Shown one piece after another: positions 998 to 16,785 of a DNA stretch of 64,000 nucleotides. A model generated the notes under the pieces. It was not told where the DNA came from. It worked only from the letters and a program-made list of their open reading frames with translations, and made no database searches. The stretch is from NCBI GenBank assembly GCA_964634465.1, contig CAZWLY010000004.1, positions 160,683 through 224,682 of the forward strand. Reading direction: 5' to 3'. The position numbers and the translations under genes are program-made. The DNA comes from an uncultured Thermodesulfobacteriota bacterium. GTDB taxonomy: Bacteria > Desulfobacterota > Desulfarculia > G963662305. Each line of letters opens with the position of its first letter. Position 1 is the stretch's first letter.

Positions 998-1666
998 TTA
1001 CGCGGAGTAGCCGCGCCGGCCCCATTCGATGCCGATCATCATCCGCGAGGGGAAGAACAGCAGCCAATGGGACAGCTTGGTCAGCGGGATGAGGATCAAC
1101 ATCAACTCACCACACAGGATGTGGATCAGGCGGATGTTGATCGCCTCCAGGAACTCGCTGTCGGCGAAGTTGACCGACAGCCAACCGGTCAGGAACGGCA
1201 GCACCGTCACCACCAAGACGACGATGTCGGTCCAGGTGGTCAGAATGCGAACGCTGGGGTTCAAAAGGCGCCGCAAGAGGAAGTAGAGCCCGATGAAGAT
1301 GACAGCCAAAGTCATCCAGTAGGCCCACTGTTCGGGCAACGCCCACCAGGACCACTCGAACATGGTTTCCTCTTCCCAGTAGCTGACGTGCTCGATGATG
1401 AAGATGGGAACCACGATGAGACAGAAGTGGAAGACGTAGCCCAATATCGAAAACAGCGGCGTCTTACCCACCGTCTGGTTGAAGGGCGACAGATACCTGA
1501 TCCAGGTCTGGAGGACGTACTTCCAACTGAAGTGCTGGAAAACGACCTTGTCCCTCTTTTTGGCCAGGGTGAAGAAGGAGATCAGCCTGATCAGGCTGCC
1601 GATAATGAAGACTCCCCAGGCGATCCAGAGTAGGGGGCCTTCAACAAAATCGCCGAAAGACTCCAT
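998..1666 (-). CDS. dsrM: DsrM/HdrE/NarI-like membrane-bound heme b subunit
   Basis: 222-aa polytopic membrane protein (about 5-6 TM helices) encoded immediately upstream of, and co-oriented with, the DsrK-like gene (30-bp gap). GAGGAGG Shine-Dalgarno lies before the ATG at 1666. The M-K gene order matches dsrMK(JOP) and hdrED. Confidence 0.6.
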   Translation of the reverse strand: MESFGDFVEGPLLWIAWGVFIIGSLIRLISFFTLAKKRDKVVFQHFSWKYVLQTWIRYLSPFNQTVGKTPLFSILGYVFHFCLIVVPIFIIEHVSYWEEETMFEWSWWALPEQWAYWMTLAVIFIGLYFLLRRLLNPSVRILTTWTDIVVLVVTVLPFLTGWLSVNFADSEFLEAINIRLIHILCGELMLILIPLTKLSHWLLFFPSRMMIGIEWGRRGYSA

Positions 1667-3571: not shown

Positions 3572-3925
3572 TCACATCGGCCCGCCGCCGGTTTGCCGCC
3601 TGATGTACTCCAGGTCCCAGCGATAGGCTTCCCGCTCCGGCCTGAGCCAGAGCGCCTCGGCGTAGTCGTTTTCGGCCGAGCCCCAAAAGCCCTTGCGCTC
3701 ATAGGCCTGGCCCCGGGCGTTATAGGCCTTGGCCAGCTCGTCGCGGCCGAGTCGGCCCGAGTCGATGGCCTCGCTCAGCCGGGCCACGGCCCGATCCAAC
3801 TCGCCGGCGGCCAGCGCGGCCAACCCGTCCTGCATCGCCTCTCTGGCCGAGCCGGCCCAGGCCGGGCCGGCCAAGGCGACGACGACGATGAGGATGGCGG
3901 CCGCCGCGATCAGGCGTTTTTTCAT
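3572..3925 (-). CDS. TPR-repeat protein with signal peptide (probable periplasmic or lipoprotein)
   Basis: N-terminal MKKRLIAAAAILIVVVALAGPAWA signal-like segment followed by TPR-like helical repeats (AYNARGQAYERKGFWGSAENDYAEAL). 27 bp upstream of nudC on the same strand. Confidence 0.55.
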   Translation of the reverse strand: MKKRLIAAAAILIVVVALAGPAWAGSAREAMQDGLAALAAGELDRAVARLSEAIDSGRLGRDELAKAYNARGQAYERKGFWGSAENDYAEALWLRPEREAYRWDLEYIRRQTGGGPM

Positions 3926-3992
3926 CGACTCTCCCCCTTGGTCAGACGGGTGTTCCTGTTTGGTCCAGATTGTAGCCTCGGCCGGGCGGCGT

Positions 3993-5381
3993 TCAATCGA
4001 CCCGGGACGACTCGGCCCGGCGGGTGATCTCGGCCAACCGCTCGGCGTTCAGGTCGTAGCGCCACAAGACGGGCAGGCTGATCGCCAGAAGCGCCGCCGG
4101 GGCGATGGAGAAGGCGACGATGATTCCGGTCAGGGCGCTTTCCGGCTGGACGGCCGTCTGTCCGGCCACCGTCTCCACGAATCCGGAGGCGCCCAGGACG
4201 AGCCCCACCAACAGCGCGCCGCCGGCCATGCCGGTCTTCTCGCCGGCGGTCCAGACCCCGGTGAAGATACCCTCGCGCCTGAGCCCCGAGTTGGCGTAGT
4301 CGGCCTGGATGGCGTCGGGCAGCATGGAGAAGGGAAAGAGCTGGATGCCGGCGTAGGCCGAGCCCATGATCGCCGTCTGGATGTAGAGGAGCGTCATCCT
4401 CTCGGCGCTGGCGGTAAGCAGGCTCAAGTCCATGACGGCGAACAGGGCCGAGGTGATCAGGTAGGCGTTGAGCTTGCCCAGCCGCCTGGAGACCCAGACC
4501 CACCAGGGCATGGTCACGATGGCCGGGGCGACGAAACAGAGGAACATCGGCGTGACCATGGTGTCCGGGCCCTTGATGATGTACTTGACGAAGTAGGGCA
4601 GGCTGGCCAGGATCGAGCCGACCGCGATCTGCTGGGGAAAGAAACCGATCATCAGGATCAGAAACGGCTTGTTTCCCCAGGCGATGGCCATCTGCTCCTT
4701 GAACGGCAACGTCGTCTCGACCTTGGTCGTGAACGGCGCCTTGGCCGTGCCCCAGACGGCGATGAGCATGACGATCAGACACACCGCGGCCAGGCTGACC
4801 GACATGACGGCGTAACCATGGCGGCCGCCGCCGGCGGCGGCGATGACGGCCGGGGCCGCCCCGCCGGCGATAAGGATGCCGGCGGTCATGAAGGCCATCC
4901 GAAAGGACATGATCGCGGTCCGCTCGTCGTAATCCTGGGTCATCTCGGCCGGCATGGCCACGTAGGGCACCTGGAAGAGAGTGTAGGCCGTGGCGCAGAG
5001 GATGAAGGCGATCATCACCCACCAGAACTTGGGCATGGGCGAGGCGAAGTCGGGCACGGCGAAGAGCAGGGCCAGGAAGACGGGCAGGGTCAGCGACCCG
5101 GCCAGCAGGTAGGGCCGCCGTCGGCCCCAGCGGGTCTGGGTCTTGTCCGAGAGGGCGCCGACGATGGGATCGGTGACGACGTCCCATATCTTGGGGATGA
5201 AGACGGCCAGGGAGGCCAGGGAGGCGGCGACGCCCAGGGTGTCGGTCATGAAGTACATCAAGAGCAGGCCCGGCAGGGCGGCGAACATGCCGGTGCCCAT
5301 GGAGCCGACGCCGTAGCTGAGGTAGATCGATCGGGGCAGCCTGCCGCCGGGGGTGGTGGTCTCGGTGCCGGCCATGGCCAA
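3993..5381 (-). CDS. MFS transporter, glycoside-pentoside-hexuronide (GPH) cation symporter family
   Basis: 12-TM profile. DKTQTRWGRRRPYLL matches the GPH/MelB family signature after TM2. Confidence 0.75.
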   Translation of the reverse strand: MAMAGTETTTPGGRLPRSIYLSYGVGSMGTGMFAALPGLLLMYFMTDTLGVAASLASLAVFIPKIWDVVTDPIVGALSDKTQTRWGRRRPYLLAGSLTLPVFLALLFAVPDFASPMPKFWWVMIAFILCATAYTLFQVPYVAMPAEMTQDYDERTAIMSFRMAFMTAGILIAGGAAPAVIAAAGGGRHGYAVMSVSLAAVCLIVMLIAVWGTAKAPFTTKVETTLPFKEQMAIAWGNKPFLILMIGFFPQQIAVGSILASLPYFVKYIIKGPDTMVTPMFLCFVAPAIVTMPWWVWVSRRLGKLNAYLITSALFAVMDLSLLTASAERMTLLYIQTAIMGSAYAGIQLFPFSMLPDAIQADYANSGLRREGIFTGVWTAGEKTGMAGGALLVGLVLGASGFVETVAGQTAVQPESALTGIIVAFSIAPAALLAISLPVLWRYDLNAERLAEITRRAESSRVD

Positions 5382-5653
5382 TCCTCCCAGAAAGCCGAAT
5401 CGGTCGTGGTTGGAGGTGAAGTGCGATCGCAGACCCCTGGCCCGGCCGAACCGTGAACACCGGATCGCGGGGGCTTATCTGAAAAACAAAAGTATCACAC
5501 CGGCCTTCGACCGGGCAAGCCCGCTCGGCCGGCGGGACCGGCGCAGGCCGGTTGCCGGGGGACCGGCCGGGACCAAGCTTACGGCATGACGTGTGACAGA
5601 AATGGAACGCATCGGGGAAAGGGACTTCAAGGCAAGGAGACCGGACACTCGCT

Positions 5654-6691
5654 CTAGACGAAGACCTTGTATCCCCCGGCGAAGCGGGATTGGCGAAAGA
5701 AGAAGGTCAGCCGGATGGTGTCGCGGGTCACTCCGTCGCGGCCCTTGGCGATGATCAGGCGGTTGAAGGTCATCCCCACCCGCTCCATCAACGCCCTGGC
5801 CGCGGCCGGGTCGCCGCCTATCTCTTTGAGCGCCTCGGCTTCGGAGAGGGGCTGGAGGAGCATGACCATGTCCGGGGTGTAGATCGTCCGGGACGAGCCG
5901 ACGACGTCTTTTAGAGACGCGGCCCAGTCCTGGCCCGGCTCGGGCCGGCGGACCTCGGAGATGACCAGGACCGCGTCGCCGGTTCGGTCTCGAAGCGTCT
6001 TCATCGCCCCGACTCGCCAGGCGTCGGCCTCGGAGGCCTCCAGGGCGGCCAGGCTCTTGTCGCCATGCCAGGGCAGGGGAAAGGCCTGGAGATAATCGAC
6101 CAGGATGATCGACCGCCGGCACCCGGTTTGGGCCTTGAGGCGGGTCACCTGGTCGAGGATCCTTTCGACCGTCGGCTCGGGGAAGTTGGTCTCGTCCAGG
6201 ATCAGAATCCGCTCGCCCAGCCGCTCCAGCTCCAGCCGGGCCGTCTCCAGGGCCGCCCGCTCCTCGGCGGTGAGGGACGCCCCCTCCGCCTCCTCCCCGC
6301 CCGGGCGGGAGCCCAACACCAGCGTCCGCCAGTCCAGGTGGGCCCGGTTGCACAGCATTCGGGTGACGATCTCCTGGCTGGTCATCTCCAGGGACAAGAA
6401 CAGAAAGCAGGCGTCGGGATTGTGGGCCACCGCGTCCAGACCGAGTTGGACGGCCAGGGCGGTCTTGCCCACGTTGGGCGCGGCGGCCAAGAGCATCAAC
6501 CCCCGCAGCCCCAACGTGGCCCGATCCAGACCGGCGATGGTCTTCTGGGGCAGGCCGATGAACTGCCGGCCGCGCCAGCGTTCCAGGGCCTGGTCGTGGA
6601 GCGCGAGGCCCTCTCTCAGACTCAGCCCGAGCCGGCTCGGCTTGGGGTTGTCACGGTTGTCGGCGATCATCGATCGACTCCCTGGTCTCAC
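5654..6691 (-). CDS. DnaB-helicase C-terminal-domain (RecA-fold) ATPase lacking the DnaB N-terminal domain
   Basis: IGLPQKTIAGLDRATLGLRGLMLLAAAPNVGKTALAVQL (Walker A), SLEMTSQE, IILVDYLQAF (Walker B / H2), ISEVRR, NRLIIAKGRDGVTRDTIRLTFF. All DnaB-family motifs are present in a 345-aa protein. The start is either the GTG at 6691 (4-bp overlap with the upstream PilZ gene) or the ATG at 6670. Confidence 0.7.
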   Translation of the reverse strand: MRPGSRSMIADNRDNPKPSRLGLSLREGLALHDQALERWRGRQFIGLPQKTIAGLDRATLGLRGLMLLAAAPNVGKTALAVQLGLDAVAHNPDACFLFLSLEMTSQEIVTRMLCNRAHLDWRTLVLGSRPGGEEAEGASLTAEERAALETARLELERLGERILILDETNFPEPTVERILDQVTRLKAQTGCRRSIILVDYLQAFPLPWHGDKSLAALEASEADAWRVGAMKTLRDRTGDAVLVISEVRRPEPGQDWAASLKDVVGSSRTIYTPDMVMLLQPLSEAEALKEIGGDPAAARALMERVGMTFNRLIIAKGRDGVTRDTIRLTFFFRQSRFAGGYKVFV

Positions 6692-7104
6692 TCGTCATCG
6701 CCGCTTGGCTCACCCGCCTTCAGCCGGTCGCGCCAGTCGATGGGCTGGGTTGGGCCGATGAATTCGACGCCCAGCCTGAAGCGGCGGTCTTTGTCCGAGG
6801 GCGCGGTGTTGATCCACACCAGGCGCGCCTGCGCCCGCCAGGTTTCCGAGGCTCCGATCTCGACCTCGATCTCCAGGCGATGGACCTCCGGCTCGGCCAG
6901 GCAGCGGTGGAGGTGGAAGTCGCCCCGCTTCAGCTCGGCCACGGCCAGGCCGCAGCCGGCCTCGGTCAAGTCCACCAGTCGGGCCTCGAACGAGGGCGCG
7001 TCGCGCTCGTCTTCGCTCCAGCCCAACACTCTGAACCGCGCCGGCCGGTCGATGACGAGCCGCGAGTGTTTGCGCCGCTCTTTGAGGCTTTGCCACAGGC
7101 CCAT
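6688..7104 (-). CDS. PilZ-domain protein (putative c-di-GMP receptor)
   Basis: RKHSR (RxxxR) followed about 25 aa later by DLTEAGCG (DxSxxG-like), in a 138-aa protein; the classic PilZ motif pair. Its stop overlaps the start of the downstream ATPase gene. Confidence 0.6.
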   Translation of the reverse strand: MGLWQSLKERRKHSRLVIDRPARFRVLGWSEDERDAPSFEARLVDLTEAGCGLAVAELKRGDFHLHRCLAEPEVHRLEIEVEIGASETWRAQARLVWINTAPSDKDRRFRLGVEFIGPTQPIDWRDRLKAGEPSGDDE

Positions 7105-7291
7105 GGCGACGCCCTCCCGGCGACGATTTCTTTCAGAGTGATGATCCGGTTACGCCGCCATTATCAATCATAGATGGAAACGGCCCAAATGCCAAGGAAG
7201 GCCCCTCGGACCCAGCCGCCTGGCCGCCGATTGCGCCTTCAAACCGGTTCTGATATCCTGCCCGTCGAATCATCGACCAAGGGGGGCGGAC

Positions 7292-7861
7292 ATGGAACGG
7301 CGGGTGGCGGCGGCCGGATCGGGCTTCATCTTCGAGGAAGATCAGCTCGTCCGCAACAGCCCCTGGGGCTGGCTGGCCCTGGCCGGGGCGGGACTGATCG
7401 TCGCCGTCTTCGGCTACGCCCTGTACCAGCAGTTGGTCCTGGGGCGGCCCTGGGGGGATCGGCCCATGTCCGACGCGGCCCTGATCGCCCTCGCCCTGCC
7501 CATGTTCGCCCTGGCCGGGTTTCTGGCCGTGCTCGGCTTGGCCGGCCGGCTGACCGTCCGGGTGAGGCCGGCCGAACTCCAGATCCGCTACTTTCCCCTT
7601 GTCAACAAAACCATACCCTGGGCCGACATCGCCGCCTGCACCGCCCGGAGTTATCGTCCCCTGTTGGAGTACGGCGGTTGGGGCGTCCGCTGGGGCGGTC
7701 GAAAGAGGGGCTGGGCCTACAGCGTCTCGGGCAATCGGGGCGTCCAATTGGAGCTTGCGAGCGGCAAGCGGATTCTGATCGGCTCCAAGCGAGCCGAGGA
7801 GCTGGAGGCGGCGTTCATCGAGGCCGGCGGGCCGACTCCGCCGCCCTCGACGACCCGCTGA
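7292..7861 (+). CDS. Membrane protein with two N-terminal TM helices and a bacterial PH-like (YdbT/bPH_2-like) domain
   Basis: Hydrophobic helices WGWLALAGAGLIVAVFGYALY and LIALALPMFALAGFLAVLGLAG, then a beta-rich segment resembling membrane-flanked bacterial PH domains. No catalytic motif. Confidence 0.4.
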   Translation: MERRVAAAGSGFIFEEDQLVRNSPWGWLALAGAGLIVAVFGYALYQQLVLGRPWGDRPMSDAALIALALPMFALAGFLAVLGLAGRLTVRVRPAELQIRYFPLVNKTIPWADIAACTARSYRPLLEYGGWGVRWGGRKRGWAYSVSGNRGVQLELASGKRILIGSKRAEELEAAFIEAGGPTPPPSTTR

Positions 7862-7945
7862 CCCGCCTTCCCCTGCCTTCAAAACGCGGCTTGTTGTAGA
7901 ATTAGGCGGCGGGACCGTCAACCTGATTCGCCGATCGGAGTAGCC

Positions 7946-9682
7946 ATGCTCTGCTGTCACATCACCCACGAGGCCTCGCGCAAGTTCGGCGGCATCGGCG
8001 CCGTCCTGGCCGGGCTGATCGCATCCTCGGCCTACACCGAGGCATTCGACAAGACCCTTGTCTACGGGCCGCTGTTCGACCGAACAGGCCCGGTCGGCTC
8101 CCGGATCGAGGCCGGCGGCGAGGTGGTCTACTCCGGCCCGGACGGTTTCGACGACGGCGGCCTGGCCGACCTCTTTCGTCCCATTGAACGGCGCCACGGC
8201 GTCGGTCTGGTCTACGGCCGGCGGCTGATGGTCGATGAACTGGCGCCGGAACGCTCCCGTGAGGTGGACGTCGTCCTCATCGACGTGACGACCATGCCGG
8301 CCGAGAAGGCCGATCTTTTGAAGTACGGTCTGTGGGAGAACTTCGGCCTCGAGTCGGACCGCTACCCGGACTGGGACTACGAGCAGTACATTCGCCTGGC
8401 CGGCCCCTACCTGGACGTCGTCGAGGCCCTCTACCCCCAGGAGAGGGGCGCCGTCCACCTGGCCCACGAGTACATGGGCCTGCCCTCGGCCCTGACGGTC
8501 GTCTCGGCCCAGCGGGCCGGGCGGCGGACGGCGGACAAGACCTTCTTCTACGCCCACGAGGTCGCTCCGGCCCGGGCCATCGTCGAGAATCTGCCCGGCC
8601 ACGAGATCGCCTTCGACAACCTCCTCCGGCTGGGTCTGAAGGAGGGCCGGGTCTTGGAGGACGATTTCGGCTCCCAGGCCCACAACTATCGCTCCGAGCT
8701 GGTCAAACGGGCCGAGCATCTGACCGGCGTTCTGGCCGTCAGCGACAACATCCGGGACCAGTTGCTCTATTTTTACCCGGCCATCGGGGCCGATAGAATC
8801 CATGTCGTCTACAACGGCGTCGGCTTCGGGTCGATCGGCTTCGAGGACAAGATGAAAGACCGGGAGCTGATCAAGGATTACTGCGAGACGCTTTTCAACT
8901 ACCGGCCGGAGATCATCATCAGCCACGTCACCAGGCTGATCGTCAGCAAGGGTCTGTGGCGCGACGTCGCCTTCCTCTACCGCCTCGATGAACACCTGGC
9001 CCGGGCCGGGGTCAAGGGCTTCTACATCCTGGTCTCCAGCCTGATCGCCTCGGGCCGTCCCCACGACGAGATCAGGCGCATGGAGGCCGAGTACGGCTGG
9101 CCGGTCTTCCATCGCCGCGGCTGGCCGGACCTGGAGGGGGCCGAGGCGGACATCTACGAGTTTCTGACCCTGTTCAACGCCCGCTCCAGGGCGGTCAAGG
9201 GCGTCTTTCTCAACCAGTTCGGCTTCTCGAACGAGGCGGCCGGCAGCCGGGTGCCGGCCGGAGCCGACACCCTGACCCTGCGTTCGGCCAGCGACATGGA
9301 ACTGGGGCTGTCCACCTACGAGCCCTTTGGCATCGCCCAGTTGGAGACCTATCCCTTTGGCGGCGTGCCGGTCTTGAGCCGGGCCTGCGGCTGTTCGTTT
9401 CTTCTGGACGCCGCCGCGCCGAAGGATACCCACCTGGTAATCGATTTCGCCGCCCCGCCGGCCGAAATGGGGCTCGACGTCGATGACGCGAAGGCGCTCA
9501 AGAACATGTCGGCCGATACGCGCCGGCTTGTGGAGGAGGCGGTCATCGACCGCCGGGCGGCCGAAGCGTTCAAGCTCGTCTGGCCCGAACGGCGACGGGA
9601 GCTCTTCAATACCATGCGGGCCGCGGCCGCCGATCTGGGTTGGGAGGCCATCGGCCGGCGGGTGGTGGCGGCCATCGGCTGA
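7946..9682 (+). CDS. GT3-family (eukaryote-type) glycogen synthase-like glycosyltransferase
   Basis: N-terminal HITHEASRKFGGIGAVL resembles the FEVAWEVANKVGGIYTV motif of GT3 glycogen synthases. The C-terminal LSTYEPFGIAQLETYPFGGVPVLS aligns with the yeast Gsy2 segment [23 protein letters not shown]. 578 aa. Confidence 0.5.
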   Translation: MLCCHITHEASRKFGGIGAVLAGLIASSAYTEAFDKTLVYGPLFDRTGPVGSRIEAGGEVVYSGPDGFDDGGLADLFRPIERRHGVGLVYGRRLMVDELAPERSREVDVVLIDVTTMPAEKADLLKYGLWENFGLESDRYPDWDYEQYIRLAGPYLDVVEALYPQERGAVHLAHEYMGLPSALTVVSAQRAGRRTADKTFFYAHEVAPARAIVENLPGHEIAFDNLLRLGLKEGRVLEDDFGSQAHNYRSELVKRAEHLTGVLAVSDNIRDQLLYFYPAIGADRIHVVYNGVGFGSIGFEDKMKDRELIKDYCETLFNYRPEIIISHVTRLIVSKGLWRDVAFLYRLDEHLARAGVKGFYILVSSLIASGRPHDEIRRMEAEYGWPVFHRRGWPDLEGAEADIYEFLTLFNARSRAVKGVFLNQFGFSNEAAGSRVPAGADTLTLRSASDMELGLSTYEPFGIAQLETYPFGGVPVLSRACGCSFLLDAAAPKDTHLVIDFAAPPAEMGLDVDDAKALKNMSADTRRLVEEAVIDRRAAEAFKLVWPERRRELFNTMRAAAADLGWEAIGRRVVAAIG

Positions 9683-9728
9683 TCGGCCGCCGGGGCCGGC
9701 CCCGTCAGCCTGATCCAAACAACTTTTT

Positions 9729-10787
9729 TCAGGTCAAGACCCGGATCCGACCCTTGGGCTCGGCCTCCACCCGGCCGATGATCGACGCCTCGACCCCCCG
9801 GCCGGCCAGATCGGCCATCAGTCCCTCCGTCCGCTCCTCGGGTGCGGCCATCAGCAGGCCGCCCGAGGTCTGGGCGTCGGCCAGCACGCCGAGGATGAAT
9901 GGATCGACGCCTTCGGCGACGTCCACCGCCTTGGCGCAAAAGGCCTGGTTGGCGTGGCTGCCGGCCGGCGTCATCCCCATCCGGGCCAGGCCGAGAACCT
10001 CCTCCAGAATCGGCGTCCTGGCCGCCTCGATTATCAGGCCCACTCCCGAGGCCTGGGCCATCTCCAGGCCGTGGCCCAGGAGCCCGAAGCCGGTGATGTC
10101 GGTCGCCGCCCTGACCCCGGCCGCGATCATGGCCTCGGCCGCCCGGTCGTTGAGGTCGGCCATGACCTCGATCATCCGTCGCTCCAAATCGGGCGAGCCC
10201 AACCGGCCCTTGAGCGCCGTGGCCAGGATGCCCAGCCCCAGCGGCTTGGTCAGGATCAAGACTTGGCCGGGGCGGGCGGCGGCGTTGGTGACGACCCGGT
10301 CGGGGTGGACCAGGCCGGTGACCGACAGCCCGTACTTGATCTCGGGATCATCCACCGAATGCCCGCCGACCAAGAGCGCCCCGGCCTCCCGGATCTTGTC
10401 CAGACCGCCCTTGAGTATCTCCAGCAGGACGCCCTTGTCCATGTTCTTGGCCGGGAAGCAGACGATGTTCATCGCCGTCAGGGGCTTGCCGCCCATGGCG
10501 TAGACGTCGGACAGGGCGTTGGCGGCCGCGATCTGGCCGAAGGCGTAGGGGTCGTTGACGAGAGGGGTGAAGAAATCGACCGTCTGGATCAGGGCCGTGT
10601 CCTCGTTGAGTTTGATGACCCCGGCGTCGTCAGAGCTCTCCCGTCCGACCAGCAGACGGGGGTCGGCGTCGAGCGGCAGGCGGTCCAAAACTTCGGCCAG
10701 GTCCCCCGGCCCCAGTTTGGCCGCTCAACCGGCCGCGGTCACCGTCTCGGCCAGACGGGGAGGATCCTTGATTCGATCGGCGCTCAC
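9729..10787 (-). CDS. selD: Selenide,water dikinase SelD, a selenoprotein with in-frame UGA (Sec) at 10725..10727
   Basis: The track ORF 9729..10688 matches SelD (DFFTPLVNDPYAFGQIAAANALSDVYAMGGKP). Reading through the TGA at 10727..10725 (minus strand) continues in frame to a GTG at 10787 preceded by GGAG. This encodes VSADRIKDPPRLAETVTAAG-U-AAKLGPGDLAEVLDRLPLD, aligning to E. coli SelD ([24 protein letters not shown]) with Sec at the Cys17 position. Confidence 0.8.
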
Positions 10788-10872
10788 GTCTTCTCGCTCC
10801 TTACGTTCTCGGCTTCCAACAACTCGGCCAGTTTCCGCCCGCCGGGAGTCAGGCTCCGGCCGACGCGTTTGA

Positions 10873-11691
10873 TCAGGAAGAAGTCGCGTTGATGTTAAGC
10901 CCCTCCACCTCGAGCTGGACCAGGCGGCCCGAGCGGACGTCGTCGCCCACGGCCAGGCTGGAGAGGATCGACGCCCCCAGTCCGGCCAGGATGGCCTGGC
11001 GGACGGCCTGGGTCGAACCCAGCTCGGCGACGACGTTGAGGTCGGCCAGCGACACGCCCAGCCTGTCCAAAGCCTGGGCGGTCACCATCCGGGTCCCGGA
11101 GCCGGCCTCGCGCAACAGAAAAGGCAGGTCGGTCAAACCGGCCGGCTTCAGTCTCGGCCCGCCGGCCGGCTTCAGATCGGGCGGGGCGACCAGGATCAGC
11201 TCGTCCTGGCAGCAGGCGGCGTACTTCAGTTTGGGGTCGTCCAGCCTGGCCCCGATGACGCCCATCTCCAGCTCGCCGGCGGCGACCTTGAGGGCGATGG
11301 AGCGGGTGTCGGCCACGGTCAGCCGGACGATCAGCTCGGGATAGAGGGAGCGCATCTGGGCCAGGTAGGCCGGCAGAAGGTAGTGGCCGGGGATGGTCGA
11401 GCCGCCCACGGACAGCTCGCCCTTGACCTGCTCCGAGGCCTCGGCCACCGCCTCCAAGGCCTCGTCGCGCAGGGCGATGAGCTTCAAGGCGTACTCGTGG
11501 AGGACCTCAGCCTGACGGGTGGGGGCCACGCCCCGCCCCAGCCGGTCGAAGAGCCGGACGCCGAGTTCGTCCTCCAGGGCCTTGATGTGGCCGCTGACCG
11601 TCGGCTGGGACAGGTAGACCGCCTCGGCCGCCCGAGACAGCGAGCCCATCTCGTAGACTTTGGCGAAGACCTGGAGGCGATGAAGGTCCAT
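10873..11691 (-). CDS. LysR-family transcriptional regulator
   Basis: N-terminal HTH LHRLQVFAKVYEMGSLSRAAEAVYLSQPTVSGHIKALEDELGVRLFDR and LysR substrate-binding domain topology. Contains an in-frame 24-bp tandem duplication at 11138..11185. Confidence 0.85.
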   Translation of the reverse strand: MDLHRLQVFAKVYEMGSLSRAAEAVYLSQPTVSGHIKALEDELGVRLFDRLGRGVAPTRQAEVLHEYALKLIALRDEALEAVAEASEQVKGELSVGGSTIPGHYLLPAYLAQMRSLYPELIVRLTVADTRSIALKVAAGELEMGVIGARLDDPKLKYAACCQDELILVAPPDLKPAGGPRLKPAGLTDLPFLLREAGSGTRMVTAQALDRLGVSLADLNVVAELGSTQAVRQAILAGLGASILSSLAVGDDVRSGRLVQLEVEGLNINATSS

Positions 11692-11975
11692 TTAGACGTC
11701 ACCTATCTGGTTCATAGATGAAACCTATTATAAAGGACGGGTCGGGGAAGGCAAGGCAAGATAGAGACCGGAACCTTGTTGCGGCCTCCGGTGTGGTTTT
11801 TTGTTTACTTTTGGCTTGACAACCGGCTACCCGAGGAGTAGTTGCTACGCTTCTTCGAGCGGTCGTTTTGGTTCTCGGCCGGCCTTCCCAGGGCTAAAAC
11901 GATGGGTGTTTCACCTTTGTCGGACCCCATTCTTGGGATAGAATCTCTCAAGGGTTCCAATCGGGAGATCGGGCT

Positions 11976-14009
11976 ATGGGCGGCGTCTTTCTGCGGGCGG
12001 CCTACCACCACGAGTGGCTTCTGACCAACGGCCGGGGCGGCTACGCCCTGGGCTTCGGCAACTTCTTGAACGAGCGCAAGTACAATGGCTTGCTCGTCGC
12101 CGGGCTCGACGGCTTCAAGCGGGTCCACGTCCTGGCCTCGCTGGAGGAGGCGGTCGAGTGGCGTGGAGCCAGGTTCCACCTCGACGCCAACCACTACCCG
12201 GACACCATCCATCCCCAGGGTTACCGCCACATCGTCAAGTCCTGGCCCCGGCCCTACCCGAGCGCGCTCTACTCGGCCGACCCGGTCAATCCCGATTTTC
12301 TGATCCTCAAGGAGCTGTTCATGATCGCCGGGGTGAACGCGGTCGTGGTCAAGTACACTAACCTGGGCGCGTTCCCGATCAACTTCACCATCCGGCCCAA
12401 GCTGACCCTGCGCGACCACCACACCGTGAGCCGGCCCGGCCGCTGGGAGGCCGAGGAGGTGGAGATCGAGTTCCACGGCGACTCGTTCTCGGTCTACAAG
12501 CCGGGGCTCGAAGACGAGGTCTGGGGCTATACCGAGTCCGGCGGCATGGCCGATAACCGGATCGTTTTCAGAAACGTCTTCTACCCCCTGGAGGCGGCCC
12601 GGGGCTACGAGGCCGTGGAGGACCTGCTCTCCCCGGCCGACATCCACTTCCGCCTTACGCCGGGGGCCAGCAACCGGTTGGTCTTCTCCCTGGGGCGGCT
12701 CGAGGAGGCCGTGGTCCGGGCCGAGGCGGCCGAGGCCGACTACCGGCGCCTGCCCCTGCCGGCCGACCATCCGGAGCGACTGAAGGGCCAGCCCGACTGG
12801 CTGTCGCTGATCAGGTTCAACGAGCCGGTCTTTTCCCACGGTGAGTACCGCCGGATCCTGGAGGGAGCCGCGGCCGACTTCTTGACCGAGGGCGACTGCC
12901 TGGCCGGCTACCCCTGGTTCGGGCCGTGGGGCCGGGACAGCCTGATCGCGCTCTCCGGCATTCGGTTGTTGAAAGGCGGCCGCCGGCTGGCGGTGCGCAT
13001 CCTCAAGAAATACGGCCGGGCGATAAGAAACGGCCTCTTGCCCAACACCTTCGGCGAGGGCGGCCAGGGGCTCAACTATCTGTCGGTGGACGCTCCGCTG
13101 TGGTTCGTGCTGCGCTCGTTCGAGATCGCGCCCCGGGACAAGGAGCTTTTCGCCAGGGCGGGTAAGATCGTGCTCAACTACCTGTTCAACCAGGACCTGC
13201 CCTTCTTCGCCGCCGAGGACGGCTTGATCGAGCTGCGCGAAGGGCCCTGGGCGCTGACCTGGATGGACGCCAAAGTCTATGACGAGCCGGTCACGCCGCG
13301 CTTCGGCAAGCCGGTCGAGATCAACGCCCTGTGGTTCAACGCTCTCAACGGCCTCCTCAAGATGGCCGAGGCCCAGGGCTTGAAGGGCGGCGCCAGACTG
13401 GCCGCCCGACCCTACTCGATCTCCTGCCGGGACCTTGAGGACCTGGCCGGGCACGTCAAGCGCGGTCTGGCCGGTTTCGTCGGCGACGATTACCGCGACG
13501 ATTACCTGGCCGATCGGATCGACGCCTCCGGGCCGGTCTTTGAGATCCGGCCCAACGCCGTCATCGCCGCCGGCCTGCCCTTCGAGCCCTGGGCCAGAGA
13601 CGTCCAGGCCATGGTTCTGGAGACGGCCCGGCGCGAGCTTCTGACACCCTTCGGCCTCAGAAGCCTGAACGTCGGTCACCCGGCCTTCAAGAACAAGTAC
13701 CTCGGCGGTCAAAAACAGCGCGACCTGGCCTACCACCAGGGCACGGTGTGGGCCTGGCCTCTGGCCTACCTGGCCCGGCTGCACTTGAGGGTCCACGGCG
13801 ACAAACCGAAGCGGAAGCTGATCAAGGATCTCAGCGCTCTCATCTGGCGCTTCAGGGACGGCTTTCTCAAGGACCAGATCGCCTCGGTGGCCGAGATCTG
13901 GGACGGCCTGGAGCCGACCATTCCCAAGGGCTGTCCGGCCCAGGCTTGGTCGGTGATGGCCGTCCTGGAGATCGAGCACCTGATCGACGGACTGGAGGGC
14001 GGGCGGTGA
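11976..14009 (+). CDS. Amylo-alpha-1,6-glucosidase / glycogen debranching enzyme (GDE C-terminal, GH133-like)
   Basis: N-terminal GDE_N-like region plus TFGEGGQGLNYLSVDAPLWFV and DAKVYDEPVTPRFGKPVEINALWFNAL, characteristic of archaeal/bacterial amylo-1,6-glucosidases. Confidence 0.75.
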   Translation: MGGVFLRAAYHHEWLLTNGRGGYALGFGNFLNERKYNGLLVAGLDGFKRVHVLASLEEAVEWRGARFHLDANHYPDTIHPQGYRHIVKSWPRPYPSALYSADPVNPDFLILKELFMIAGVNAVVVKYTNLGAFPINFTIRPKLTLRDHHTVSRPGRWEAEEVEIEFHGDSFSVYKPGLEDEVWGYTESGGMADNRIVFRNVFYPLEAARGYEAVEDLLSPADIHFRLTPGASNRLVFSLGRLEEAVVRAEAAEADYRRLPLPADHPERLKGQPDWLSLIRFNEPVFSHGEYRRILEGAAADFLTEGDCLAGYPWFGPWGRDSLIALSGIRLLKGGRRLAVRILKKYGRAIRNGLLPNTFGEGGQGLNYLSVDAPLWFVLRSFEIAPRDKELFARAGKIVLNYLFNQDLPFFAAEDGLIELREGPWALTWMDAKVYDEPVTPRFGKPVEINALWFNALNGLLKMAEAQGLKGGARLAARPYSISCRDLEDLAGHVKRGLAGFVGDDYRDDYLADRIDASGPVFEIRPNAVIAAGLPFEPWARDVQAMVLETARRELLTPFGLRSLNVGHPAFKNKYLGGQKQRDLAYHQGTVWAWPLAYLARLHLRVHGDKPKRKLIKDLSALIWRFRDGFLKDQIASVAEIWDGLEPTIPKGCPAQAWSVMAVLEIEHLIDGLEGGR

Positions 14010-15322
14010 GAGTCCTCTTTCTGACCTGGGAGTTTCCCCCGCTGATCTCCGGCGGGCTGGGAACGGCCTGCTACGGCATGGTCCGCTCTTTGCTGGGCCG
14101 GGGGGTCGAGATCGACCTGGTCCTGCCGGCGAGGGAGGAGGTCTACTTCAAGCTCCGCTCGCCCCGGGACGCCGACGAGCTGCCGGTCTCTTTTCTGAGC
14201 GCCTCGGCGGCGGCCAAAGAGGTCGAGCGGACCGCCGAGCTGATCGAGCGGCTGGAACTGGTCGGCGTCAGCGCCATCCCCGAGACCTACCTCTCCCCGG
14301 CGGCCAGTCACCAGGCCCTGTGGACCGAGTTGGCCCGAACGTCCTCGGCCGGCCGAGCCAAGGTCTTCGCCCGGATCGAGAGACAGCTTTTGGGCGGCGA
14401 GAGGCTGTTCAGAAAGGTCCAGGAGATGGCCGACCGGGTCCAGCTCGTCGCCGACAGGCTCGACTTCGACCTCATTCACGCCCACGACTGGCTGACCTAC
14501 CCGGCCGGGCTGGCCCTGGCCGAGCTGTCCGGGAAGCCGCTGGTCGCCCACATCCACGCCACCGAGTTCGACCGGGCCGGCGGCGTCGGCGACGAGCGCA
14601 TCCACCAGATCGAGTACGCCGGCCTGTCCGCCGCCGACACGGTCATCGCCGTGTCGCGCTACACCGCCGAGATGGTCATCAACCGCTACCGGATCTGGCC
14701 GGCCAAGATGCGGGTCGTCCACAACGCCTTCGACCTGCCTCCGGTGAGGCTGGCGGACAAACGCCGGATCTTCAAACACCCGCTGGTCCTCTACCTGGGC
14801 CGGATCACCGTCCAGAAGGGGCCGGACTACTTCCTGGAGGTGGCCCGCCGGGTCCTGAAGCGCCACCCCAAGACCCAGTTCGTCATGGCCGGCGCCGGCG
14901 ACATGATGCGCTCGATCCTTCACCGCTCGGCCTCGATGCGCTTGAGGCAGCGCTTTCTCTTCACCGACTTTCTGAACCGCCGCCAGGTGGAAGAGATCTT
15001 GAAAGCGGCCGACATCTTCATCATGCCCTCGGTCTCCGAGCCCTTCGGCATCGTCCCCCTGGAAGCCATGGCCCACGGCGCGGCGGCCATCATCTCCAAA
15101 CAGTCGGGCGTGGCCGAGGTTTTGACCAACGTCCACAAGGTCGATTTCTGGGACGTGGACCAGATGGTCGATCTGGTCTGCCGGCTCATCGAGGACCCGG
15201 AGGAGAGGCTGGCCCTGGCCCGGGCCGGCCAGGAGGAGGTGTCGCGCATCCAGTGGGACGAGGCGGCCGAGAAGATCGAGGCGGTCTACGCCGAAACCCT
15301 CGAGACGGCCGGGCGGAGGTAG
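14006..15322 (+). CDS. Archaeal-type (GT4/GT5-like) glycogen or alpha-glucan synthase
   Basis: Start GTG at 14006 overlaps the stop of the upstream gene (GTGA). VRVLFLTWEFPPLISGGLGTACYGMVRSLLGRGVEIDLVLP resembles the N-terminus of Pyrococcus-type glycogen synthases. C-terminal GT-B E...FG...E motif: IMPSVSEPFGIVPLEAMAHG. Confidence 0.65.
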   Translation: MRVLFLTWEFPPLISGGLGTACYGMVRSLLGRGVEIDLVLPAREEVYFKLRSPRDADELPVSFLSASAAAKEVERTAELIERLELVGVSAIPETYLSPAASHQALWTELARTSSAGRAKVFARIERQLLGGERLFRKVQEMADRVQLVADRLDFDLIHAHDWLTYPAGLALAELSGKPLVAHIHATEFDRAGGVGDERIHQIEYAGLSAADTVIAVSRYTAEMVINRYRIWPAKMRVVHNAFDLPPVRLADKRRIFKHPLVLYLGRITVQKGPDYFLEVARRVLKRHPKTQFVMAGAGDMMRSILHRSASMRLRQRFLFTDFLNRRQVEEILKAADIFIMPSVSEPFGIVPLEAMAHGAAAIISKQSGVAEVLTNVHKVDFWDVDQMVDLVCRLIEDPEERLALARAGQEEVSRIQWDEAAEKIEAVYAETLETAGRR

Positions 15323-15325
15323 GCG

Positions 15326-16519
15326 GTGCTCAACATCGTCTTCTACTTCCAGGTCCACCAGCCCTATCGACTGCGGCCCTACAGCGTCCTCGACATCGGC
15401 CGGGACCACGACTACTTCGACGAGCGCCTCAACCGGATGGTGGCCGAAAAGGTCGGCCACAGGTGCTATCTGCCGACCAACCGCCTCTTCCTGGAGCTGA
15501 TCGAGCGCTTCGAGGGGAGATTCAAGATCGCCTTTTCGATTACCGGCACCGCCGTGGAGCAGTTCAAACGCTACACGCCCGAGGTGCTCGATTCGTTCAA
15601 GGCCCTGGCCGCCACCGGCTGCGTCGAGTTCCTGGGCGAGACCTATTACCACTCTTTGGCCTTTCTCTTCGACGAGGAGGAATTCCTGGCCCAGGTCAGG
15701 CTGCACAAGGAGTTGATGCAGCGGGAGTTCGGCTTCACGCCGATCGTCTTTCGAAACACCGAGTTGATCTACCAGGACGAGCTGGGCGAGCTGGTGGCCG
15801 ACCTGGCCGGCTTCAAGGTCGTCCTGGCCGAAGGGGCCGACCGGGTGCTCGATTGGCGTTCGCCGCTGTACGCCTACCAGAACTACTCCCGGCGGCTGTT
15901 TTTGCTCTTGAAGTACTACACCCTCTCCGACGACATCGCCTTCCGCTTCTCGGATCGCTCCTGGGCCGAGTGGCCGCTGAGCGTAACCAAGTTCGTCGAT
16001 TGGGTGGCCCGGCTCGGCCTCAATGAGCACCGCGGCCGGAACCTTTTTTTGAACCTGTTCATGGACTACGAGACCTTCGGCGAGCACCAGTGGGCCGAGA
16101 CGGGCATCTTCGAGTTTCTTCGCCGGCTGCCCGGGGAGGTTCTGAAGCAGCCCCACCTCGGCTTCGCCTGGCCCTCGGACGTCCTCGACCTGACCGACTA
16201 CCCGACCGAGGCGCTGTCCGTGCCCCAGCCGGTCTCCTGGGCCGACACCGAGCGCGACCTTTCGGCCTGGATGGAGAACGATCTGCAGCTCAACGCCCTG
16301 GAATCGTTCTATATCCTCCTGGAGACGATCAAAGAGCAGGGCCGGAACGATCTTCTGGAAGAGGCTCGGCGGCTGTCCACCTCGGATCATTTCTATTACA
16401 TGTCGACCAAGTACTTCCAGGACGGCGACGTCCACAAGTACTTCTCGCCCTACGGCGCGCCCGAGGAGGCCTATCTTTATTACATGAACGCCCTGGCCGA
16501 TTTAGAGGAGAGGCTGTAG
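15326..16519 (+). CDS. Glycoside hydrolase family 57 protein (alpha-amylase / 4-alpha-glucanotransferase type)
   Basis: VFYFQVHQPYRL, the hallmark N-terminal GH57 motif, with overall GH57 catalytic-domain composition. Confidence 0.8.
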   Translation: MLNIVFYFQVHQPYRLRPYSVLDIGRDHDYFDERLNRMVAEKVGHRCYLPTNRLFLELIERFEGRFKIAFSITGTAVEQFKRYTPEVLDSFKALAATGCVEFLGETYYHSLAFLFDEEEFLAQVRLHKELMQREFGFTPIVFRNTELIYQDELGELVADLAGFKVVLAEGADRVLDWRSPLYAYQNYSRRLFLLLKYYTLSDDIAFRFSDRSWAEWPLSVTKFVDWVARLGLNEHRGRNLFLNLFMDYETFGEHQWAETGIFEFLRRLPGEVLKQPHLGFAWPSDVLDLTDYPTEALSVPQPVSWADTERDLSAWMENDLQLNALESFYILLETIKEQGRNDLLEEARRLSTSDHFYYMSTKYFQDGDVHKYFSPYGAPEEAYLYYMNALADLEERL

Positions 16520-16726
16520 GATGTACTCTTCCCCGCCACGACCTCGATTCCGGCTCGGCCCGTCGGTCGGGTTTGAGCCTTCTTCACGGCCGCGGCCGAT
16601 ATTCCGGGCGAGGCGCTGCGCCCGCTTGGCGGGCCTCGGCGATCTTGGCCGACCCGTTCCGGTCCGGCCAAGCCGCCGGGTGGGGATTACATGAACGCCC
16701 TGGCCGATCTGGAGGAGAGGCTGTAA
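16480..16726 (+). repeat. 40-bp direct repeat of the GH57 gene 3' end (16480..16519 and 16687..16726), separated by a 167-bp GC-rich spacer
   Basis: ttacatgaacgccctggccgatTTAgaggagaggctgtaG versus ttacatgaacgccctggccgatCTGgaggagaggctgtaA. Both encode YMNALADLEERL* and all three differences are synonymous. The second copy is not attached to any long ORF. Confidence 0.8.
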
Positions 16727-16785
16727 CTTGGGGGTATAATGGGACTGTCCGGAACCGAGCCTGACAGTGTAATCAGGGAGAAACG

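Follow-up and report, generated by a model that had tools for sequence, protein, structure and literature searches.

A single-domain PilZ protein encoded beside a stand-alone DnaB-type ATPase in an uncultured Thermodesulfobacteriota bacterium: a possible route from c-di-GMP to a helicase

Background

What is the gene of a putative second-messenger receptor doing in a tight pair with a gene for what looks like the motor domain of a replicative helicase? The messenger in question, cyclic diguanylate (c-di-GMP), controls motility, matrix synthesis, transcription and the cell cycle. The pair lies in a stretch of 64,000 nucleotides from an uncultured Thermodesulfobacteriota bacterium (assembly GCA_964634465.1, contig CAZWLY010000004.1, positions 160,683 to 224,682), hereafter the window, with positions counted from its first letter. 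On its minus strand the window carries a gene (6688..7104) for a single-domain PilZ protein of 138 aa that may serve as a c-di-GMP receptor or adaptor, followed by a gene for a stand-alone DnaB-type ATPase or helicase of 338 aa when read from the ATG at 6670 (5654..6670). Both open reading frames (ORFs) had been picked out in an earlier note, made from the letters alone, which saw in them a candidate c-di-GMP-responsive ATPase module, and both are present on the minus strand where that note had placed them.

The reading at which we arrive is that of a PilZ-regulated, domesticated, primase-less DnaB-type helicase encoded in a two-gene operon, a statement to which, taken as a whole, we give slightly less than even chances. 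Both proteins belong to known superfamilies, and stand-alone DnaB-core helicases (RSF1010 RepA, the gp4 helicase domain) as well as single-domain PilZ adaptors are already known. The novelty lies in a coherent clade of chromosomal DnaB-like helicases that have no primase, and in the coupling of this clade, in particular lineages, to c-di-GMP genes; we offer it as a testable lead and not as an established system. If c-di-GMP does control the helicase, no bacterial helicase before it would have been gated by this messenger, and sessility and stress signaling would be linked directly to DNA replication, repair or restart; if PilZ does gate the ATPase, the pair would provide a simple two-protein system in which to test the path of a second messenger to DNA metabolism. 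No bacterial helicase stands among the targets in a 2023 review of c-di-GMP receptors (PMC10519070), and the only hint in the literature of a link between c-di-GMP and a helicase is that the stand-alone PilZ protein CdbS of Myxococcus xanthus pulls down the replicative DnaB (PMC10313047). If the link is fortuitous, what remains is an operon of the ordinary sort, its two products drawn from known domain families; independent of PilZ, the ATPases form a coherent and apparently uncharacterized clade that is widespread in metagenomes of anaerobes.

Results and discussion

The PilZ protein

Taken alone, the Pfam match of the 138-aa protein to PilZ (PF07238) is borderline, with a score of 22.5 bits exactly at the gathering cut-off of 22.5 (E 1.5e-4); searches of NCBIfam, PHROGs and PADLOC gave no match, and a word-index homology search with the protein returned only itself. 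An exhaustive phmmer search against 1.84 billion representatives recovered 34 proteins of 115–188 aa, which are 27–48% identical and align mostly from end to end. Pfam PilZ was matched by 29 of 32 of these relatives, with a best E of 7e-12, and the consensus of the family alignment reads ERRxxxR...DLSxxG. When the family profile was compared with the PDB, the matches were weak and were to PilZ proteins only, and the top ~38 Foldseek matches in the PDB of an AlphaFold2 (AF2) model with a predicted local distance difference test score (pLDDT) of 87 were all PilZ domains, including those of YcgR, Alg44, BcsA, MapZ, MotI and PlzD. Because of these family searches and fold matches, membership of the PilZ family is secure despite the threshold Pfam score, and the predicted structure is that of a genuine single-domain PilZ protein, as the earlier note had recognized from its two signature motifs.

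The first of these motifs, the c-di-GMP-binding RRxxxR, is read from the sequence as RRKHSR (residues 10–15; 7060..7077, minus strand), and at least 90% of the family members keep its R11 and R15. The second, D/NxSxxG, occurs as the variant DLTEAG (residues 45–50; 6955..6972, minus strand), with an invariant G50 and with Thr instead of the usual Ser, a residue that is Ser in 24 of 32 family members and Ala in the closest related locus, L049. The protein shares the six-stranded beta-barrel fold and the RRxxxR signature of single-domain PilZ adaptors (MapZ, which acts on CheR1, the PilZ domain of YcgR, and CdbS), of which MapZ and CdbS are stand-alone PilZ proteins that act through binding of a partner protein; it differs from them in having Thr for Ser in its form of DxSxxG, and in two features peculiar to its subfamily, an insert GFHLxxCLxxP and a helix PxxWR at the C-terminus. 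We regard it as a putative c-di-GMP receptor of the adaptor type.

The ATPase

The second protein is, as judged from its sequence and its predicted structure, a complete DnaB C-terminal RecA-fold domain preceded by a linker helix, in which the catalytic motifs H1, H1a, H2 and H4 are all kept. The Pfam family DnaB_C (PF03796) was matched at 70.9 bits against a cut-off of 27, over profile positions 6–254 of 255, and the same search found no DnaB N-terminal domain (PF00772); since the score against the DnaB equivalog model TIGR00665 is also far below its cut-off (67.5 against 385 bits), the protein is not the housekeeping DnaB. The RepA-like family AAA_25 (PF13481) reached 26.3 bits, just under its cut-off of 27, and none of the KaiC families was found at E<=0.1. 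NCBIfam, PHROGs and PADLOC had nothing to say of the ATPase beyond 'DnaB-like', and among the PADLOC defense models the ATPase drew no more than a weak match to the P-loop of TRIP13 (E 0.0045), the PilZ protein none. With the family profile, the best sequence in the PDB was Bst DnaB (E 2.4e-18). The AF2 model of the ATPase has a predicted template modeling score (pTM) of 0.77 and its best fold match is DnaB bound to single-stranded DNA (4esv, E 4e-15), followed by other DnaBs and G40P; by this fold match, a helix predicted at residues 25–36 corresponds to the DnaB linker helix.

The catalytic motif residues are constant among the 43 members of the family described below (residues are numbered on the longest ORF, of 345 aa). 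In the Walker A or H1 motif AAPNVGKTAL (residues 70–79; 6455..6484, minus strand) P72, N73, G75, K76 and T77 are invariant in 43/43, as are the Glu of SLEM (H1a), D199, Y200, L201 and Q202 of the Walker B or H2 motif IILVDYLQAF (residues 195–204; 6080..6109, minus strand), and a GSxRxxYxPD block. K316, G317, R318 and G320 are likewise invariant in the H4 or arginine-finger region LIIAKGRDGVT (residues 312–322; 5726..5758, minus strand), whose KGRDG we take to be the equivalent of the KQRNG motif of Bst DnaB, the PDB alignment ending at about residue 275, short of this region. The motifs on which the earlier note had based its description, of a DnaB C-terminal domain with no N-terminal one, are thus all in place. 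At the H3 gamma-phosphate sensor the motor departs in an unusual way from that of DnaB: here Glu246 (in I244-S245-E246; 5953-5961) aligns to the Gln of the SQL of DnaB. This Glu is invariant throughout the stand-alone clade and is shared by related primase-helicases of mobile elements, and so we read it as a trait of the clade and not as a sign of inactivation. A further feature is the C-terminal tail (residues ~326–345; 5654-5716), with the consensus LTFFYRQSRFAxGFRxF and invariant T329, Q334, R336 and G340, in a position beyond the end of the fused primase-helicases, which stop at ...RFEEG. Because this aromatic and basic tail is strongly conserved and yet modeled with very low confidence, it may be a docking peptide.

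Compared with replicative DnaB (G. stearothermophilus, PDB 2r6a/4esv), the ATPase has the same fold, the H1, H1a, H2 and H4 motifs and a predicted linker helix, but lacks the N-terminal collar or primase-binding domain, is only ~24% identical, carries Glu at H3 and ends in its own tail, with the core FFYRQSRFAxGFRxF. RSF1010 RepA, the textbook stand-alone hexameric DnaB-like helicase core (AAA_25), is likewise a RecA-fold core with no N-terminal domain, and there is the weak AAA_25 match; the window's ATPase, in contrast, is chromosomal, has no plasmid replication partners and is closer in sequence to DnaB_C, and no RepA structure is found among the top PDB sequence or fold matches.

Family and origin of the ATPase

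A homology search with the ATPase recovered ~43 proteins of 313–345 aa that are 51–66% identical to it, and more distant matches carry an N-terminal Toprim, RepB primase/PriCT or DnaB N domain. Where relatives of the ATPase bear an organism label, it reads 'Deltaproteobacteria bacterium' or 'Pseudomonadota bacterium'. A hidden Markov model (HMM) of the family scores the stand-alone set at 488–545 bits and everything else at 407 bits or less. All members of the clade are full-length (43/43; 313–343 aa), and a fused primase (DNAG_N/Toprim) is absent from the window's ATPase and from all 43. Among metagenomic loci, the best matches often prove to be only the last, C-terminal third of a longer ORF, of 830–880 aa, and these ORFs carry DNAG_N and Toprim domains. 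The helicase modules of these DnaG-primase-helicase fusions (e.g. L011, L012 and L016) are ~50–56% identical to the ATPase and share all of its family-specific motifs; the window's protein differs from them in having no DNAG_N/Toprim half, in lying outside any mobile element, and in belonging to a separate, stand-alone clade, which in a neighbor-joining (NJ) tree stands beside the fusions as their sister group.

The fused form resides in a recurrent cassette, in which a tyrosine integrase, the primase-helicase of ~850 aa, a ParA-like AAA_31 ATPase, an ORF of ~100–147 aa and a protein of 918–1076 aa follow one another in conserved order (L012 2089-10476; L013 2163-10330; L014 3143-9668; L016 3420-9966); in the last of these proteins a C-terminal helix-turn-helix (HTH) is the sole recognized domain. 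By their domains the ~850-aa fusions are T7 gp4-type primase-helicases, and by this setting they belong to integrative mobile elements. As a side observation, an AAA_21/DUF4276 pair (OLD/AbiEii-like) lies upstream of the primase-helicase in L016.

A scan of IMG/VR with the ATPase found no relatives, and a scan of genome contigs with the single ATPase sequence gave one distant match, L005. On these sequence comparisons, the stand-alone clade is best read as a primase-less, domesticated derivative of a mobile-element replicative helicase, now chromosomal and under purifying selection.

Anatomy of the locus

The longest ORF of the ATPase (5654..6691, minus strand) starts at a GTG at 6691 and encodes 345 aa, and it is this start that produces the 4-bp overlap with the PilZ gene reported in the earlier note. 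The ATG at 6670, which leaves a gap of 17 nt to the PilZ gene, is the most likely start on sequence grounds, because all 42 of 42 aligned homologues begin at the position of Met8 of the 345-aa ORF, the public gene call is likewise of 338 aa, and a Shine-Dalgarno sequence GGGAG (6678..6682, minus strand) can be read 7 nt upstream of this ATG. The overlap is therefore improbable in the window itself, but a real one is present in L049, in which the stop codon of the PilZ gene overlaps the ATG of the ATPase gene (TGATG). A spacing of 17 nt is still that of an operon-type junction, and a scan of the sequence between the two genes found neither a promoter-like nor a terminator-like site. Across 5300..7400 the sole promoter-like site, against a mean of 0.2 in shuffled sequence, is a sigma-70-like TTGGCA-17-TATGAT (7167..7195, minus strand; 10/12) that lies ~60 nt upstream of the PilZ start, and which is a candidate by consensus match only.

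The guanine-cytosine (GC) content at third codon positions (GC3) is 0.88 in the PilZ ORF and 0.90 in the ATPase ORF, as is typical of real genes in this genome of 67% GC, and the overall GC content of the pair equals that of its flanks, with no anomaly. As the earlier note had described, the pair stands between a transporter of the major facilitator type (MFS_2), which is the downstream neighbor of the ATPase gene, and a divergent gene upstream of PilZ, whose product belongs to DUF6141 with a weak bPH_6 match; domain searches of the neighboring window genes found no replication or mobile-element genes within ~6 kb. Taken together, we are highly confident that the anatomy is as described here and that the two genes form an operon on ordinary, non-mobile chromosomal DNA.

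Gene neighborhoods of the ATPase lineages

Gene contexts were compared across ~20 stand-alone loci, and the seven lineage-specific types that were distinguished map onto sub-clades of the NJ tree. In the first, made up of the window and L049, the PilZ gene is followed by the ATPase gene and is divergent from a gene for a glycosyltransferase-4-like (GT4-like) protein of 576–578 aa. Between the two loci the ATPases are 65% identical, the PilZ proteins 49% (with both motif sites kept) and the GT4-like proteins 67%; the PilZ protein of L049, read from a GTG at 2426, is MGVWRKFIERRARRR. The second type (L051, L052 and L054) consists of a gene for a Ser/Thr-rich protein, one for a GAF-GGDEF protein with an intact GGDEF active site, and the ATPase gene after a gap of 28–38 nt. 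The Ser/Thr-rich product is a conserved protein of 289–337 aa (L051 2869-3882; L054 2991-3860) with no Pfam match, in which a low-complexity N-terminal half rich in Ser, Thr and Asp is joined to a C-terminal half rich in Trp and Tyr (WxDDIPHRIN..., YYWQDQWWTDNW). The PilZ-linked and GGDEF-linked ATPases were considered as direct sister clades, an arrangement that the NJ tree did not confirm, placing them as separate sub-clades of one larger clade.

The third type, found in six loci of the largest sub-clade, combines formate-dehydrogenase-like genes, a DUF202 gene, the ATPase gene and a gene for a conserved protein of ~117 aa (L002 7275-7628; L003 7068-7421; L008 1009-1365; L010 1231-1614). This small protein, which has no Pfam match (MLxLEDLKNDPALVARIDWHITPQEAFETYQLKSPGNWRG...), always follows the ATPase in this sub-clade, just as the DUF202 membrane protein always precedes it, and the two are possible lineage-specific partners. 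In the fourth, NrdD/NrdG genes precede the ATPase gene and a racemase gene follows it. The fifth (L006 867-5966; L056 3-2142) has a gene for an SbcD-like Metallophos protein (485 aa) and one for an SbcC/YhaN-like AAA_27 SMC ATPase (875 aa) before the helicase gene, with junctions of 4 bp and 14–17 nt, and looks like a DNA-end-processing operon. The sixth (L053) consists of genes for a lipoprotein, the ATPase and an alpha-2-macroglobulin, and in the seventh a divergent HDAC gene is followed by the ATPase and hemerythrin genes. In L055 (3947-4354) the hemerythrin-domain protein, of 135 aa, is encoded 37 nt after the ATPase and is another small sensor-type neighbor. Synteny is stable within the sub-clades, and integrase, ParA or primase genes are absent from every stand-alone ATPase locus examined.

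A PilZ-subfamily HMM, run against six-frame segments of 56 loci, matched in the window and L049 only, and by this HMM the upstream genes of L002 and L003 (DUF202) and of L053 (lipoprotein) were rejected as hidden PilZ homologues. On a 48-kb contig, L057, a further protein of the PilZ subfamily, 40% identical, is encoded with no ATPase gene beside it. Since five other ATPase lineages lack PilZ and L057 has PilZ and no ATPase, the PilZ–ATPase pair is a lineage-specific operon and not a general module. The module of the earlier note survives to that extent, as an operon whose pairing recurs in L049 but is confined to one lineage: looked for by neighborhood, the two genes co-occur in the lineage of the window and L049, and not in the five other lineages or L057. 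The note had been wary of an ordinary RepA helicase common without PilZ, and of a protein that would fail PilZ models; the ATPase family is indeed widespread without PilZ, in five other context types, but it is not RepA, and the PilZ models were matched.

A possible link to c-di-GMP

The c-di-GMP genes found beside the ATPase are of two types, a receptor and a cyclase, and both occupy the slot directly upstream of it, on the same strand, in two of its sub-clades. No GGDEF, EAL, HD-GYP or PilZ domain was detected in the ~58 other called neighbor genes of the ATPase loci (0/~58). For the upstream slot this gives 2/7 lineages against 0/58 elsewhere (hypergeometric P ~0.01, post hoc), which is suggestive only, because the comparison was made post hoc and over seven lineages. 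The GAF-GGDEF lineage is thereby suggestive, independent support for the connection between the ATPase and c-di-GMP that the earlier note had drawn from PilZ, a partner that is limited to one lineage.

In the mechanism that we propose, the first gene would supply a single-domain PilZ protein acting as an adaptor-type c-di-GMP receptor, and the second a primase-less DnaB-type ATPase, predicted to form a ring through packing of its linker helix as in the helicase domain of DnaB and gp4. By homology, such a ring would translocate along single-stranded DNA, driven by nucleoside triphosphate (NTP), an expectation that follows from the retention of the linker helix and of every catalytic motif. Because the N-terminal collar is absent, the ATPase would not depend on docking of DnaG or on the interface of the canonical loader, and it may act in an accessory role in repair or restart, as the SbcCD-like context of one lineage suggests. 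The helicase family presumably works without PilZ in most lineages, PilZ being an added regulator in that of the window, where the c-di-GMP-bound protein would dock on the ATPase, with the C-terminal tail as the candidate site, and modulate its assembly, loading or turnover. That the activity or loading of the helicase is tied in this way to the level of c-di-GMP, with a ligand binding and a PilZ–helicase contact that we infer, is a tentative proposal, which we hold with distinctly less assurance than an even chance would warrant. Its wider form is doubtful, namely a ring helicase under c-di-GMP control, with a PilZ adaptor in one lineage and a co-transcribed GAF-GGDEF protein as the local source of the signal in another.

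Several points weigh against such control. The motif Ser is replaced in both of the ATPase-linked PilZ proteins, a change that may make for weaker binding of the ligand. A PilZ partner is seen in one lineage only, two genomes in all; upstream of the ATPase the five others have genes unrelated to it (for DUF202, NrdG, an SMC-like protein or a lipoprotein) or none, and the 40%-identical PilZ protein of L057 has no ATPase neighbor. The adjacency statistic is post hoc and draws on only about seven lineages. In the case of CdbS, a direct interaction with DnaB was not seen (PMC10313047). Finally, ComFB, a c-di-GMP receptor encoded between comFA and comFC, regulates motility (PMC12265714). The comFA-comFB-comFC operon of B. 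subtilis resembles the present one in that it joins the gene of a small c-di-GMP receptor to that of a DNA translocase of helicase-like type; the receptor fold and the class of ATPase differ (ComFA is a DEAD-box protein), and it is motility and not ComFA that ComFB regulates, therefore calling for caution when function is inferred from membership of an operon.

Other readings of the pair

The strongest competing explanation is that the PilZ protein serves the divergent glycogen-type glycosyltransferase and alpha-glucan cluster, in the control of storage or exopolysaccharide, and that the helicase is co-transcribed and functionally unrelated. A GT-B glycosyltransferase is divergently adjacent in all three of the loci that hold the PilZ subfamily, GT4-like (576–578 aa) in the window and L049 (419-2149) and GlgA-like (GT5/GT1) in L057 (4311-5855), where the ATPase is missing; the 578-aa GT4-like family is widespread, as a homology search showed, and uncharacterized. 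In the window the PilZ gene borders a cluster (7946-19338) that encodes the 578-aa GT4-like protein, a GDE debranching enzyme, a GlgA-like protein, a GH57 protein and a glucan phosphorylase; BcsA and Alg44, glycosyltransferases that are classically gated by PilZ domains, are both among the fold matches of the 138-aa protein, and the receptor review cites regulation of GlgX by c-di-GMP in Streptomyces (PMC10519070). The glycosyltransferases of the two independent lineages are, however, not orthologous (a local E of 0.001 only), so that the three loci amount to just two independent cases. In the window the DUF6141 gene intervenes between PilZ and the glycosyltransferase, the tight junction of PilZ and ATPase is conserved, and an allegiance of PilZ to glucans leaves unexplained why, in another lineage, a GGDEF gene should precede that of the ATPase. 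We judge this explanation unlikely.

It is also rather improbable, in our view, that the two genes form an operon of convenience, in which helicase and PilZ are unrelated and the adjacency of PilZ and GGDEF genes reflects inherited synteny and chance. ComFB is a precedent for such an operon, the contexts of the ATPase vary widely, and the two genomes with a PilZ partner stand fairly near each other, as the identities of their glycosyltransferases (67%) and ATPases (65%) indicate, for which reason the conserved gene order is of limited weight. Chance adjacency nevertheless sits poorly with the overlap of stop and start codons in L049, and with the presence of two types of c-di-GMP gene in the same upstream slot, set against none in the ~58 other neighbors (P ~0.01, with the post hoc limit given above).

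A third reading, close to the KaiC-like identity entertained in the earlier note, would have the ATPase be a KaiC/RadA-like signaling or protein-remodeling enzyme, one that takes its input from PilZ and has no action on DNA. It could appeal to the stand-alone RecA-fold core, to the conserved, low-confidence tail as a possible docking peptide and to the replacement of the H3 Gln by Glu, and one source labels a relative of the ATPase as belonging to the KaiC/GvpD/RAD55 family. No KaiC family is matched at E<=0.1, however, the best sequence and fold matches are to DnaB, with DNA bound; the primase-linked helicase modules, 50–56% identical, have the same Glu sensor and tail core, and the SbcCD-like context of one lineage also counts against a role away from DNA. 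A KaiC-like identity is accordingly not supported, and the reading as a whole is very unlikely.

The last reading takes the ATPase for what is left, and is decaying, of a RepA or primase-helicase that came with a plasmid or integrative element and was captured beside PilZ. It is largely refuted and retains scarcely any probability: the nearest outgroup of the clade does consist of primase-helicases from mobile elements, with integrase and ParA genes on their flanks, and AAA_25, at 26.3 bits, does come close to its cut-off of 27, but the clade is monophyletic and full-length in 43/43 (313–343 aa) with invariant catalytic residues, its loci hold no integrase, ParA or primase gene, sub-clade synteny is stable, and for the window's own pair there is neither a GC anomaly nor an IMG/VR match, so that the ordinary phage or plasmid RepA, or remnant of one, that the earlier note had contemplated is set aside.

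Other features of the window

Long antisense ORFs of 358–861 aa overlap real genes at 6065-7141 (plus strand), 7133-9718 (minus strand) and 3729-5456 (plus strand). They were rejected as genes and are regarded as artefacts of high GC content, their GC3 being 0.62–0.76 against 0.87–0.94 in real genes. At one end of the window, positions 998-1666 (minus strand) encode a polytopic membrane protein of 222 aa with no Pfam match, and positions 1-2000 have a GC content of 0.54–0.61, compared with ~0.67–0.70 elsewhere.

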